A stretch of 64,000 nt of DNA, taken from NCBI GenBank assembly GCA_963674745.2, contig CAXXDV010000003.1, positions 2,336,001 through 2,400,000 on the forward strand, read 5' to 3'. Below are positions 57,776 to 63,999 of this stretch, piece by piece. The translations under genes and the position numbers were made by a program. The notes beneath the pieces were generated by a model that worked only from the letters and a program-made list of their open reading frames with translations, had not been told where the DNA came from and searched no databases. This DNA is from Desulfosudaceae bacterium. GTDB taxonomy: Bacteria; Desulfobacterota; Desulfobacteria; Desulfobacterales; Desulfosudaceae. Each line of letters starts with the position of its first letter. Position 1 is the first letter of the stretch.

Positions 57776-60700
57776 TTACATGCCTCTGCGGTATTTTCCC
57801 CCAACCTCATACAAGGCGCCGGTAATCTGGCCCAAAGAGCAGCAGCGGACGGTATTCATCAACTCGGCAAAAATATTTTCACCGGCCAGAACGGTTTTCT
57901 TAAGCTGATCCAACGCCTGCGGGGCCTGATCTTTATGCCGCTGCTGAAAATCCTGCAGGCGATCCAGCTGGGACTGTTTTTCTTCTTCGGTGGCCCGGGC
58001 CAGTTCCAGATCAGCCGTTTCTTCGGCCGATCCGTCGGGATTGACAAAGGTATTGACGCCGACGATGGGATGCTCACCGGTATGTTTACGGTATTCGTAA
58101 TAAATGGATTCTTCCTGGATGCGGGACCGCTGGTACCCGGTTTCCATGGCACCCAGTACGCCCCCACGTGAGGTGATGCGGTCAAACTCGGCCAGCACTG
58201 CTTCTTCGACCAGGTCGGTCAGCTCTTCGGCAATAAAACTGCCCTGGAGCGGATTTTCGTTTTTGGCCAGCCCCCACTCTTTGTTGATAATCTGCTGAAT
58301 GGCCAGGGCCCGGCGCACGGATTCCGTGCTGGGCGTGGTAATGGCCTCGTCATAGGCATTGGTGTGCAGGCTGTTGCAGTTGTCATACACGGCACACAGG
58401 GCCTGCAGGGTGGTGCGGATATCGTTGAACTGGATATCCTGCATGTGCAAAGAGCGGCCCGAGGTCTGAATGTGATATTTGAGCATCTGGGAGCGCGGCG
58501 AACCCTTGTATTTTTCCCGAAGGGCAACAGCCCAGATACGCCGGGCCACCCGGCCGATGACCGTGTATTCCGGATCCATGCCGTTGGAAAAGAAAAAGGA
58601 AAAGTTGGGCGCGAAACTGTCCAGGGGCATCCCCCGGGACAGGTAATATTCCAGGTAGGTAAAGCCATTGGCCAGGGTCAGGGCCAGCTGGGTAATGGGA
58701 TTGGCCCCGGCTTCGGCAATATGGTAGCCGGAAATGGACACGGAATAAAAATTGCGCACGTTGTTGTTAATAAAAAAGTCCTGGATATCGCCCATCATTT
58801 TCAGGGCAAACTCGATGGAAAAAATACAGGTATTCTGCCCCTGGTCTTCTTTTAAGATATCGGCCTGAACCGTCCCCCGGATATTGGCCAGCACGTCCGC
58901 CCGGACCGACGCCAGCTCTTCGCCGGTCAGCTGGCGCTTCTTTTCTTGCGCCAGTTTCTCCGCCTGCTGATCAATAGCGGCATTTAAAAACATGGCCAGC
59001 ATGATCGGGGCCGGGCCGTTGATGGTCATGGACACCGAGTTGTTGGGCGCGCACAGATCAAAACCGCCGTAGAGGACTTTCACATCATCCAGGGTGCAGA
59101 CGCTGACGCCGGAGGTACCGATCTTGCCGTAGATGTCCGGCCGGGTATCCGGGTCGTATCCGTATAGGGTAACCGAATCAAAAGCCGTGGACAACCGTTT
59201 GGCTGCCGAGTCCGCGGACAAAAGTTTAAACCGGCGGTTGGTCCTGGCCGGGTCACCCTCGCCGGCAAACATGCGGGTGGGGTCCTCGCCCACCCGTTTT
59301 AACGGGAAAACCCCGGCGGTATAAGGGAAAAACCCCGGCAGGTTTTCCCGGCGCAGCCAGGTATAGGTCTGGCCGGGATCGCTGTAGTCCGGCAGAGACA
59401 GCTTGGAAATCCGGGTGCCGGACAACGACCGGGTGGACAGGGGCAGGCGGATCTCGTTGTCCCTGACCTTGTAAACCAGTTCATCACCACCGTAGGATTG
59501 ACATGCCGTTTTCCACTGTTCCAGTGTTTTCCGGGTATCCTCATCAACCGACTGCCGGGCGGCATCCAGCAGGCTGTCCAGTTCCGAATCCGTGGCATCG
59601 ATGCCGTTTTGGGCCAGCGCCTGTTTCGTTTCCACCAGGTGCCATTCCCGACGCAAAGCATCGGCCTGCTGTCCGGTCTGGTGATGATAGTTGCGAATGG
59701 TATCGGCAATCTCCGACAGGTAACGAACGCGTTCGGTGGGGATGATAATCGAGCGGGCAGAAGAAGCATTGGTTTCCGGGCAGGCCAGAGAGGTTTCGAA
59801 CCCCACGCCGGTCTTTTCCCGGACTGTATCAAGCAGCCTGTGATACAGGGCAGTCACCCCATCGTCATTGAACTTGGAAGCAATCGTACCGAAAGCCGGC
59901 ATCTGCTCGGGCGGGGTATCAAAGGCTTTCCGGTTGCGTTGCATCTGCTTGCGCACATCCCGCAAGGCGTCTTCCGAGCCCTGTTTTTCAAATTTATTGA
60001 CCACCACAATATCGGCAAAATCGAGCATGTCGATTTTTTCCAGCTGGGATGCCGCCCCGAACTCGCTGGTCATGACATAAACACAGACATCGGCCAGATC
60101 GACGATATTGGAATCCCCCTGGCCGATGCCGGCTGTTTCCACAATGACCAGGTCATACCCGGCCGCTTTTACCGCCGCGATGGTCTCGGGCATGGCCGAC
60201 GGAATTTCCGAATGCGAACGCCGGGTGGCCAGGCTCCGCATATACACCCGGGGGCTGTCGATGGCATTCATGCGAATGCGGTCGCCCAGCAGAGCCCCCC
60301 CGGTTTTGCGCCGGGAAGGATCGGCGCAGATGACCGCCAGGTGGGTATCGCCGGGGTCCATTAGAAAACGCAGAATCAATTCATCGGTCAGCGATGATTT
60401 ACCGGCCCCGCCGGTACCTGTCACGCCGATGACCGGCACTACCCGGTCACCGGTTTTTTCAGCAAGCGCCCGGCGGATTTTTTCGATGGACCCGTCTCCC
60501 GCTTCTTCGGCCTCCCGTACCTGTGAAATCAGGCGGGCCACGGCAACCACGTTTTCCGTCGACAGGCTGTCCACTTCAACCGGATGGTCCCCGACCGTTG
60601 AAAAATCCATGGTCTCTACCATATTATTGATAATTCCCTGCAAGCCCAAGCGGGCACCGTCATCCGGCGAATATATTTTGGTCACGCCGCAGCACTCCAG

Positions 60701-61036
60701 TTCCCGGATCTCCTGCGGTACGATGACCCCGCCACCGCCGCCGAACACTTTGATGTGAGGCGCGCCATGGTCCTTGAGCAGTTCAATGATATACTTGAAA
60801 AATTCCATGTGACCGCCCTGGTAGCTGGATACCGCAATACCCTGGGCGTCTTCTTCCACGGCCGCCCGGACAATTTCCACTGCCGACCGGTTATGGCCGA
60901 GGTGGATGACTTCCACCCCGGTGTCCTGAAGAATGCGTCGCATGATGTTGATGGAGGCGTCATGGCCGTCAAACAGGGATGTGGCGGTGACGACCCGGAT
61001 GTGGTGTCTGGGCTGATAGGTTTCTGTCTGCTGCAT
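57776..61036 (-). CDS. icmF: fused isobutyryl-CoA mutase/GTPase IcmF
   Basis: B12-binding DGHDASINI, MeaB-like GTGGAGKSS, mutase domain RMFAGEG...HTNAYDEA. 1086 aa. Confidence 0.95.
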
Positions 61037-61957: not shown

Positions 61958-62062
61958 GGACACCCACAGGGGGTGCCCCTACGAGCCTCGGAGGACGTTC
62001 ATACATATTGTAGGGGCAGGCCCCCGTGCCTGCCCTGATGAAGGGCAACCATGGGGGTCTGC
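61958..62062. repeat. GTAG-type REP cluster
   Basis: CACCCACAGGGGGTGCCCCTAC and GTAGGGGCAGGCCCCCGTGCCTGCCCT. Confidence 0.8.
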
Positions 62063-62122
62063 CTCTGCGGGTCGTGGACGGCGTCCATGAAATCGGAATA
62101 AAAGGAGGTTTTTTGAAGTGCC

Positions 62123-63235
62123 CTACAACATAAGGCTGATGCTGGCCACGGCCTGAAGATAGATTTTCTGTTCAACGTAGCTTTTGCCGGGATTACCGGT
62201 GATGGCCAGGTCAAATTTGAAATGACTGAAGACGAACCCGGCCCCGATGGTTGCACCGAACTTGGGGCTTGGCAGATCGTTTCGGATATTGCCCAGGGAT
62301 GTGGTCCGGGCAATCACCGGAATGATCAGCGCGGCCCGCAGAAACGTATGGTCCAGGACCTGCTTTTCCATCCCTGCCCGGATCATCCAGAATTCAATTT
62401 TCTTTTTCTCTTGTCCGCCGAAATGGCCGTAAATAAATTCCTGGTCACACGTGAACAGCCAGGTGTCTTGTTGCACAGCCACTGCCAGGGTGGTAATCAG
62501 CGGCATGGAAAACCGGGTCTGGGAATTTTTTTCGGTTTTTGTCCGTTCATATCCGGATTTATGCAGATCAACCAGATTTTTGGTCATCAGGCCGATGGTG
62601 ATGTCGGGGGTTGCCTGCCAGAGAAGGCCGGCATCCAGGGTAGTATAGTCCAGACCGACCTGCCGTAAATCCTCATACGGGCGCCCGGCCCGGCAGAAAT
62701 CGGTCTGTCATTTCACCTTGACAAATGAGACGCCCCAGGCGAGGCGGTCATAATACGGCAACCGGCCGGCAACAGAAAACCGGTAATCGAATGTGTCTGA
62801 TTTTATTTGTCCGGAATAGGTCTCATCGACATCGATCATGCTCAAATCCAGCAGGTGGGCGGGATAACCGCTCCAGTCCTCCTGCCCGCTGTCGCCGTCA
62901 AAATGCAGCCGCACAAACCGTCCCACGCCAAAGGTCAACGGGAAATCTTCCCCCGGACGGACGACCAGGCTGAAGGCCTCATCCGTATCCGGACAGCCGG
63001 CTGACACAAAAAGCTGGCTGGTCTTCATGCGGGCCATGCCGGCCGGGTTCCAGAACAGGGCCGAACCGTCATCGGCCACGGCCGAAAAAGCCCCGCCCAA
63101 ACCGATGGCCCGGGCCCCCACCCCAAGCCCCAGGTCAGACCCGGACAAGGCGTCAAAGTCCACATCATCGGCCATGACCGGACCGGCCAGAAGACACAAG
63201 ACTACAATTGTTTTTAAAAGAATTGAATCGGGCAT
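62123..63235 (-). CDS. PorV/FadL-like outer-membrane beta-barrel protein with one in-frame TGA (62708-62710); candidate selenoprotein
   Basis: Signal peptide and GARAIGLGGAFSAVADDGSALFWNPAG. The two track ORFs are in one frame, joined by open codons QTDFCRAG...LDAGLLWQATPDITIGL. A strong hairpin follows the TGA. Confidence 0.75.
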
Positions 63236-63324
63236 TTAAGAAGGCCCTTTGTATAAGGGACCCAGCCTGCCGCCGTTCAGCACGCCGGCTTTTTATAATC
63301 AATCAATGAAGAAGAGGATTTTCC

Positions 63325-63999
63325 TTACTGGGTTTTATCCGGTTTTCTGGCCAGCATGATGAGTTTTTTACCGAACAGCAATTGAGGGCTCAGCACCTGG
63401 CGCATTATGGTTTTTGCTGCTTCTTTGGAAAGTTCTTTCTTTTTTTTACGGTAAAGCACCCGCCTCGTGGAAATCCAGGCCAAAGGATATAAAAAAGGGG
63501 CCAGCAACAGTGAATTAATGGAATATCTGGTCGTATCAACCGCGACGACCTCAAGCCCGACGTATTCCAGATAGCAACGAAGCTGAAAGGCGTTGATTAA
63601 AAATATGTGGCCGAAGTATACCCCTTCCGAGTCATGGTCTTGATTTACCGTGTCGTTCCCGCAACTGGCGGTTGCGACAACCGGAATACTGTTTCTACGG
63701 GCGCTCCCGGTCAATAACAGAGACAGTCTTCCTTCCAGATGGAGCGTATTCGGGGTGGTGACAACCAGTAATCCGCCCGGCTTCAGCGTGCGTGCCATAT
63801 CCCTTAAAGAGGCGACCTGCGCGTCCAGGTGTTCAATACCCTCCGAGAACAGAATGCCGTCAAATTTCTCATCGTCGAATGGCAGCGATTTTTCAAGGTT
63901 TATTTTTTGTATCTTAATGCCTTTGCCATGTATGTTTTCAGGAAACAGATCGCCGGCGATGACGTCAAACCCGGAAGCGACCAGACTTCGTGAATTTAC
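63325..63999 (-). CDS. class I SAM-dependent methyltransferase (5' part outside window)
   Basis: Frame is open to the window edge: DVIAGD...LPFDDEKFDGILFSEGIEHL...LKPGGLLVVTTPN. Confidence 0.88.
   Translation of the reverse strand, partial: VNSRSLVASGFDVIAGDLFPENIHGKGIKIQKINLEKSLPFDDEKFDGILFSEGIEHLDAQVASLRDMARTLKPGGLLVVTTPNTLHLEGRLSLLLTGSARRNSIPVVATASCGNDTVNQDHDSEGVYFGHIFLINAFQLRCYLEYVGLEVVAVDTTRYSINSLLLAPFLYPLAWISTRRVLYRKKKKELSKEAAKTIMRQVLSPQLLFGKKLIMLARKPDKTQ

Follow-up and report, generated by a model that had tools for sequence, protein, structure and literature searches.

The question raised by this locus is whether an in-frame TGA codon ends translation or codes for selenocysteine (Sec). 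The locus lies on the minus strand at positions 62123 to 63235 of a 64,000-nt stretch of DNA from a Desulfosudaceae bacterium (assembly GCA_963674745.2, contig CAXXDV010000003.1, positions 2,336,001 to 2,400,000 of the forward strand), and this whole stretch is referred to as the window. An initial annotation, made from the sequence alone, had proposed that two open reading frames (ORFs) at this place form one gene for an outer-membrane beta-barrel protein and that this protein is a candidate new selenoprotein. Our computational analysis of the sequence concluded that codon 176 is very probably decoded as Sec, in a real selenoprotein gene that uses the ordinary bacterial mechanism, and that it represents a family of which no description was found. 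The proposal of a candidate new selenoprotein was favored by a Cys/TGA column in the homologs, a covarying hairpin, the Sec machinery of the genome and a FadL-type barrel. One channel gene appears to have been annotated as two on account of an internal TGA that most likely codes for Sec.

Reading frame and homologs at codon 176

The ORFs at 62708-63235 (175 residues) and 62123-62587 (154 residues) share one minus-strand frame. When TGA was translated as U, the proposed single gene for a FadL/PorV-like outer-membrane beta-barrel selenoprotein (62123 to 63235, minus strand, 370 codons plus the stop) gave 370 residues, with U176 (62708 to 62710, minus strand; context VKVK-U-QTDFC) as the lone non-standard codon. 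The TGA had been described as the sole break in the frame and the 40 codons between the two ORFs as open, and both statements proved correct: the frame is continuous, and codons 177 to 216 are open and conserved as protein. A contig from a public sequencing run, probably of the source sample, spans 62022-63400 without any difference and adds no independent information, and the contigs of two other public runs leave the TGA position uncovered.

Homologs were compared at the column of residue 176. A search of 5.8 billion proteins returned 15 strong matches, 13 of which were full-length (346-391 residues) and had Cys at the U176 column; the two closest (45-47% identity; 203 and 221 residues) stopped exactly at this column. 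Cys occupied the column in all 18 full-length Cys-type homologs that were aligned, and in the alignment of these with 13 Sec-type proteins the Sec/Cys column was invariant (31/31 rows).

At the DNA level, a scan of one genome per species found 19 full-length loci, 12 of them with one TGA at the aligned position (10 titled Desulfobacterales-type or Deltaproteobacteria, and two titled only 'delta proteobacterium' or similar) and seven, from unclassified 'bacterium' metagenome-assembled genomes (MAGs), with TGC or TGT. A metagenome scan found 27 full-length loci, namely 21 with TGA, five Cys forms and one Cys form with an upstream TAA. After three duplicates were dropped, the window, species-genome and metagenome loci gave 31 distinct Sec-type 60-nt regions, a set of DNA regions that is different from the 31 proteins (13 Sec-type and 18 Cys-type) of the alignment. 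The 30 distinct DNA sequences other than the window, from Desulfobacterales MAGs and metagenome contigs, have TGA at the same column and an intact downstream frame. Full-length copies with a single in-frame TGA were also found in two genomes of other families by a scan of 401 genomes of the same order, and these two genomes turned up independently in the species-level scan. At position 176, where the initial annotation had proposed that homologs be compared, they had Cys or a conserved TGA and never Trp, Arg or Gly.

Two metagenome contigs carry copies with a further stop codon, each of which is possibly decayed or the product of an assembly error. In one, a Sec-type copy (L124), an additional TAA follows the TGA after about 100 codons; in the other, a Cys-type copy (L139), an in-frame TAA precedes the Cys by a few codons.

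The TGA could be a true stop, in which case the locus would be a pseudogene or would encode two separate half-proteins. Gene callers have split the locus everywhere: the 64 matches among shorter database proteins at E ≤ 1e-10 consisted of 58 N-terminal halves and six C-terminal halves, 54 of the 58 N-terminal halves (53 excluding the window's own) ended precisely at residue 175, and the nearest relatives (65-89% identity) were split likewise. None of these 64 matches was named a selenoprotein, and no full-length member of the Sec clade was present among 80 near-length database matches. One relative, in a genome of the same order (G289; loci L024 / L030), is a genuinely broken Sec-type copy, in which the frame breaks off after ~72 intact N-terminal residues and a C-terminal piece follows in a different frame. 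However, 31 distinct sequences that belong to one well-supported clade all retain the same single TGA, and the frame downstream of it is intact and conserved in each. Protein-level conservation extends through the 40 codons between the TGA and the following ATG, the start codon that comes next stands at different places from locus to locus, the Cys forms are contiguous, and in the structural model described below a single barrel draws strands from either side of the TGA. The TGA is flanked by residues that do not vary among the 31 aligned proteins (R109 and W121 before it; D201, G203, E266 and R286 after it), and G215, N220, P245, D264, G270 and others downstream of it are invariant as well. 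Because so many downstream residues are invariant, translation must run past the TGA, and a true stop is regarded as extremely unlikely.

In a maximum-likelihood tree, the 13 Sec-type proteins formed one clade with 100/100 support, TGA being kept in this clade and Cys in the sister groups. The window protein is the deepest and longest branch of the clade, whose members are 36-45% identical to it; since the clade is monophyletic at this level of identity, the TGA has been retained through a long divergence. The Sec forms also have clade-specific insertions that are absent from the Cys forms, namely G-D-S-G before W121 and a loop of 9-20 residues ending in F-S-L-P, which lie at approximately 114-118 and 231-245 of the window protein. 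In a library clustered at 50% identity, the narrow family was small (61 representatives at E ≤ 1e-10 and 11 at E ≤ 1e-30) and was nested in a large superfamily sharing the N-terminal motif (4208 representatives at E ≤ 0.001).

Downstream hairpin and selenocysteine machinery

A conserved hairpin resembling a Sec insertion sequence (SECIS) was identified at 62678 to 62692 (minus strand), with a CGGGC stem, a CGGGC loop starting 20 nt after the UGA, and a GCCCG stem. All 31 Sec-type sequences can form a hairpin of 5-7 bp with a G-containing loop 20-21 nt after the UGA. It corresponds to alignment columns 27-33 and 37-43 (+15 to +31 after the UGA), where 85.7% of the cells across the 31 sequences are paired, compared with 14-55% in slid registers. 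Compensatory changes were found in three of the seven pairs, and the covariation score was 0.308 versus 0.176 in shuffled alignments, none of which (0/500) reached it. For example, column 42, a synonymous third base in a Ser/Pro codon, covaries with column 28, the first base of an Arg/Gly/Pro codon 12 nt upstream, the pair types being CG (22), GC (3), GU (2) and UG (2). The check on covariation proposed in the initial annotation therefore yielded a downstream hairpin conserved with compensatory changes in 31 sequences.

According to the legend of Fig. 2 in a review of selenoprotein families published in 2026 (PMC13188914), bacterial SECIS (bSECIS) elements have a loop of 3-9 nt with a G in positions 1-2 and a stem of 4-16 bp, lie 16-37 nt from the UGA, and have a minimum free energy of -7.5 kcal/mol or lower. 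When a 27-nt piece (+10 to +36) was folded, 28 of the 31 Sec-type sequences, including the window, fell within all four ranges; the hairpin of the window has the loop CGGGC, 5 bp, a spacing of 20 nt and an energy of -9.3 kcal/mol. In loop, stem, spacing and energy the family hairpin thus resembles bSECIS elements of the fdhF type. It differs in its loop sequences, which are GGC, GGG, GGU or AGGUR, whereas the fdhA loops of the same genome are GGUCU, and its binding by SelB is a prediction.

The initial annotation had described a stem of approximately 14 bp starting at +1, and a GGGC/GCCC hairpin as an alternative to it. The long stem was recovered by folding as an extended structure at 62651 to 62707 (minus strand), in which CAGACCGAU (62699-62707) pairs with GUCGGUCUG (62651-62659) and CUGCC pairs with GGCAG, giving a lower stem of 9 + 5 bp that bears the conserved hairpin. 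The 60 nt from the UGA on folded at -28.9 kcal/mol (z = -3.12), and 2 of 200 shuffled sequences folded equally well, while a wider 96-nt piece had a z of only -1.51. The stems are therefore real and fold in the window, but the long lower stem is absent from the other 12 of the 13 Sec-type sequences folded and is specific to the window rather than a conserved SECIS core. The GGGC/GCCC hairpin does have a G-containing loop 20 nt from the UGA, but in the minimum-energy fold it is nested atop the long stem and is not an alternative to it; it is the sole part conserved in relatives.

No common hairpin was found at the corresponding place in seven Cys-type genes, the mean energy of which was -7.6 kcal/mol versus -11.2 kcal/mol in the Sec-type sequences. 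An Rfam scan of 62560-62780 at E ≤ 10 gave two chance-level matches and no SECIS family.

The genome (5.55 Mb in 3 contigs, 99.96% complete) was surveyed for the Sec machinery, the presence of which had been proposed as a check, and all of selA, selB, selD and tRNA-Sec were found. selB scored 369.8 bits (cut-off 242.25) at C1:1156265-1158157, and selA (607.9 bits), selD (368.6 bits) and tRNA-Sec (75.1 bits) were likewise above the curated cut-offs. A second SelB-like gene (239.9 bits, just under the cut-off of 242.25) lies at G000:C3:1795409-1797292. The selD gene and two fdhA genes of the same genome each have an in-frame TGA followed by a hairpin with a GG-containing loop starting at +19 to +21, and the hairpin of the barrel gene has the same geometry as these elements. 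The selD/Fdh loci with TGA are at C1:326061-326981, C2:53681-55687, C3:2042139-2044148 and C3:1453900-1454643, these four including a third Fdh-like match that also holds one TGA.

A genome-wide reassignment of TGA was considered and rejected, since TGA is the ordinary stop of 9 of the 36 long ORFs in the window. Alternatively, a near-cognate or suppressor tRNA for Trp, Cys or Arg, or a local recoding signal, might allow read-through of UGA176 without insertion of Sec, and a stem-loop right after a stop codon can generally promote read-through. Against such read-through, the homologs have Cys, the standard counterpart of Sec, and never Trp or Arg, the hairpin lies within the bSECIS ranges and resembles the selD and fdhA elements of this genome, which has the whole Sec machinery, and other ORFs of the window end normally at TGA. 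Read-through without Sec is accordingly considered highly unlikely. Under Sec decoding, SelB and Sec-tRNA(Sec) would decode the UGA of codon 176 as selenocysteine, directed by the putative SECIS hairpin with its G-rich apical loop from 20 nt after the UGA.

Protein fold and possible role of residue 176

The initial annotation had suggested a PorV/FadL-like barrel of approximately 370 residues, and the structural analysis agreed with this suggestion. The AlphaFold2 model built from the 31-sequence alignment was a beta-barrel (mean predicted local distance difference test score, pLDDT, 81.7; predicted template-modeling score, pTM, 0.81). The top Foldseek matches were the Pseudomonas aeruginosa FadL homologue, TodX, Escherichia coli FadL and TbuX (3dwo, 3bs0, 3bry, 1t16), with E of 2e-11 to 2e-9 and template-modeling (TM) scores of 0.5-0.6, followed by PorV in the type IX secretion complex (8gl6_F, TM 0.56). 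Some Cys-type homologs carry a precomputed match to PF03349, and several remote homologs have been named PorV/PorQ by their sources. The gene at 62123-63235 would thus encode a single exported barrel of the FadL/TodX/PorV superfamily of ~370 residues. Residues 1-22 (63170 to 63235, minus strand; MPDSILLKTIVVLCLLAGPVMA) are a probable signal peptide with a predicted cleavage site, and most homologs have a hydrophobic N-terminus.

The window protein shares with FadL/TodX/TbuX (PF03349), its best structural matches, a putative N-terminal plug region and an invariant N-P-A. FWNPAG (residues 61-66; 63038 to 63055, minus strand) lies in this conserved, putative plug (hatch) region, W62, N63, P64 and A65 being invariant in all 31 aligned proteins. 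NPA is a motif that we take to be the plug motif of FadL, and structures of the FadL NPA, N33A and P34A mutants were among the fold matches. Unlike these channels, the window protein is approximately 50-80 residues shorter, has shorter external loops, scores below the Pfam cut-off, and carries a Sec/Cys residue on strand 5; we know of no such residue in FadL. PorV/PorQ models (NF033709, NF052325) were the best NCBIfam matches, by way of the N-terminal motif, and the fold match to 8gl6_F points the same way, but the window protein is far under the cut-offs and has no adjacent cargo gene. Searches of the 99.96%-complete genome detected neither SprA_N (PF14349) nor the C-terminal sorting domain of type IX cargo (PF18962), and the control genomes gave no matches either.

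The secondary structure (DSSP) string of the model was read as 14 strands with short periplasmic turns, 212-219 and 223-230 being counted as one kinked strand. Sec176 is predicted to be on strand 5 (162-182), with approximately 15 residues separating it from the periplasmic turn below and 7 from external loop 3 above. The hydrophobic face of this strand switches at Y171: residues 165, 167, 169 and 171 were read as lipid-facing, while above Y171 residues 172, 174, 176 and 180 are hydrophobic and 173, 175, 177 and 179 are polar. The model thus suggests that Sec176 faces the barrel lumen or external vestibule, beside the invariant S146 (strand 4) and the near-invariant Y197 (strand 6), in a stripe of conserved residues (I172, F174, U176, T178 and F180) that probably face inward. 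In this position, on the lumen side of strand 5, it would lie higher than the membrane and immediately under external loop 3, and so within the vestibule that binds hydrophobic substrates in FadL-type channels.

The initial annotation had also proposed a Sec/Cys pair of the form U-x4-C. Cys181 (62693 to 62695, minus strand) is a possible selenylsulfide partner in the window, and Cys is present at +5 in 15 of the 30 other Sec-type sequences. Including the window, 16 of the 31 sequences have the nearby Cys at +5, 11 have it at -1 and two at -3, and two have none within -6 to +7. The pair is present in the window and in half of its relatives, but U-x4-C is one of several arrangements and is not a feature of the family, the others being C-U (11), C-x2-U (2) or no pair (2). 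Four of the closest N-terminal halves (P0088, P0090, P0091 and P0094; 67-89% identity) carry a Cys at the fifth residue ahead of the stop (GVSCVKVK and similar), the site of Phe171 in the window, which may be a fourth arrangement.

Our best guess is that the selenol serves as a reactive or ligand-binding site in the substrate vestibule. Sec176 would most likely be a reactive nucleophile or a thiophilic ligand, which could cycle with a nearby Cys (C181 in the window) as a selenylsulfide, rather than form a structural cross-link alone. The main rival explanation of its role is that Sec is only structural, replacing the first Cys of a disulfide that tethers a loop, with the selenylsulfide staple staying closed in sulfidic, reducing surroundings. 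In 16 of the 18 Cys-type homologs a second conserved Cys lies approximately 13 residues downstream (R-x-C-Q), suggesting a disulfide between strand 5 and loop 3; a Cys is close by in 29 of the 31 Sec forms, and all Sec forms with a named taxon are from sulfate-reducer lineages, all of which agree with a staple. However, the partner Cys is found at three places (+5, -1 and -3) and is missing in two of the 31, which better fits a reactive site with a variable resolving Cys, and the ancestral R-x-C-Q position has been lost in all 13 Sec-type proteins aligned. Sec is also costly for a purely structural role. The structural staple is considered rather unlikely.

A more specific form of the preferred reactive or ligand-binding role is that a passive FadL-type channel uses a vestibule Sec to capture its substrate, covalently or as a selenolate ligand, and then hands it inward. 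This form is considered unlikely; the candidate substrates under it would be zero-valent sulfur or polysulfide, selenium species, or a thiophilic metal or organometal compound.

Several observations weigh against the interpretation of this gene as a FadL-type selenoprotein with a Sec in its vestibule. The order-level scan did not detect the gene in any of 12 genomes from the window's own family, two of which belong to the same genus. Three of the 31 hairpins narrowly miss the bSECIS thresholds, one through a stem mismatch and two with energies of -5.9 and -6.7 kcal/mol. The hairpin also overlaps the conserved peptide C/x-R/G/P-T-G-G-S/P-D/E, a Gly codon of which starts with the two loop G's, and part of the hairpin's conservation is therefore due to coding. 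The match to Toluene_X (PF03349) scored 21.5 bits versus a gathering cut-off of 29.7 and covered residues 45-81 only; that to NCBIfam PorV_fam (NF033709) scored 36.6 versus 90, and, as a further shortfall of the same kind, PorV2 (NF052325) scored 44.8 versus 325, both over N-terminal residues only. The position and orientation of Sec176 were drawn from secondary structure and residue parity rather than from coordinates, and the two Sec-type sequences without a nearby Cys mean that a partner is not universal. Finally, when 70 neighboring ORFs at 12 Sec-type loci were compared with Pfam, no conserved partner gene was found among them.

Neighboring genes and known selenoprotein families

Since the neighborhoods differ, they give no pointer to the substrate, and no fatty-acid or aromatic-degradation genes were consistently adjacent to the Sec-type loci. 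In the window, the barrel gene is preceded by a methyltransferase gene and followed by a TetR gene and a fused B12-binding/MeaB/mutase gene. The fused gene (57776-61036, minus strand), two genes downstream of the barrel gene, combines B12-binding, MeaB and methylmalonyl-CoA-mutase parts (IcmF-like). At another locus (L037:6542-8821), separate B12-binding, enoyl-CoA hydratase and MeaB genes are downstream of the barrel gene; the occurrence of such B12/MeaB-type genes at two of 13 loci may be coincidence. Two further loci (L032 and L033) have an upstream RNase_H_2 gene and then an ORF of ~200 residues, which matched OMP_b-brl weakly in L033 and had no Pfam match in L032.

Just 3' of the barrel gene is a G+C-rich repeat of ~70 nt (61990-62065), which had 99 matches in its own genome at 80-93% identity, many of them in tandem arrays with a period of ~86 or 107 nt near 1.06-1.22 Mb of contig C3. 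Contig depth stacked up over 62000-62057 in three public runs.

The initial annotation did not recognize this protein as a member of a described selenoprotein family, and no such family was found in the selenoprotein reviews examined, as far as their relevant parts go, or in NCBIfam release 20, no selenoprotein model of which matches the window protein. No FadL-, PorV- or porin-like selenoprotein appears in the family table of the 2026 review (PMC13188914), in the parts consulted of a 2022 review (PMC9312934), in the main text of the BSepDB paper (PMC13326102), or in section 7 and supplement 4 of the deep-Sep paper (PMC12013277). The same applies to the portion consulted of the Haft and Gwadz preprint, although the Haft and Tolstoy paper may hold an earlier mention. 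Full-text literature on selenocysteine with FadL and on selenoprotein with PorV returned unrelated papers only. One named entry, 'Hypothetical protein DW' of Desulfosarcina (in the consulted part of PMC12013277), was considered as a prior description and rejected, because it is an unrelated protein of 54 residues.

The only outer-membrane barrels in the 2026 family table (PMC13188914) are a TonB-dependent receptor and a GSU2204 MtrB/PioB-family protein. According to the consulted parts of the sources, both were predicted from Sec/Cys pairs: the receptor, of the FCYXU-motif type (NF049945), from Desulfosarcina sp. BuS5 (PMC12013277), and the GSU2204 MtrB/PioB-family protein (NF041027) in PMC13188914. 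Like the window protein, these are exported beta-barrels with an in-frame UGA, and NF049945 is also from a Desulfobacterales genome. However, they are a 22-strand TonB-dependent barrel and an MtrB-type barrel rather than a FadL-type barrel, their motif is CxxU rather than U-x4-C, CU or CxxU, and neither model matches the window protein at E ≤ 1.

To our knowledge, bacterial selenoproteins are nearly all soluble redox enzymes, and passive channels of the FadL/PorV type are not thought to do chemistry. A FadL/PorV-type barrel with an invariant Sec/Cys residue would add a selenoprotein family and would expose a reactive selenol on the surface of sulfate-reducing cells. Every public copy examined is mis-annotated as two hypothetical proteins, and a model of the family would mend dozens of genome annotations and raise the number of selenoproteins counted in Desulfobacterales genomes. 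Within one clade, the changing place of the partner Cys (+5, -1, -3 or none) offers a natural experiment on the recruiting of resolving cysteines. If the capture of substrate in the vestibule were true, this would be the first channel of its class with a chemically active residue, and would represent a route for the uptake of chalcogens or metals at the surface of sulfate reducers.

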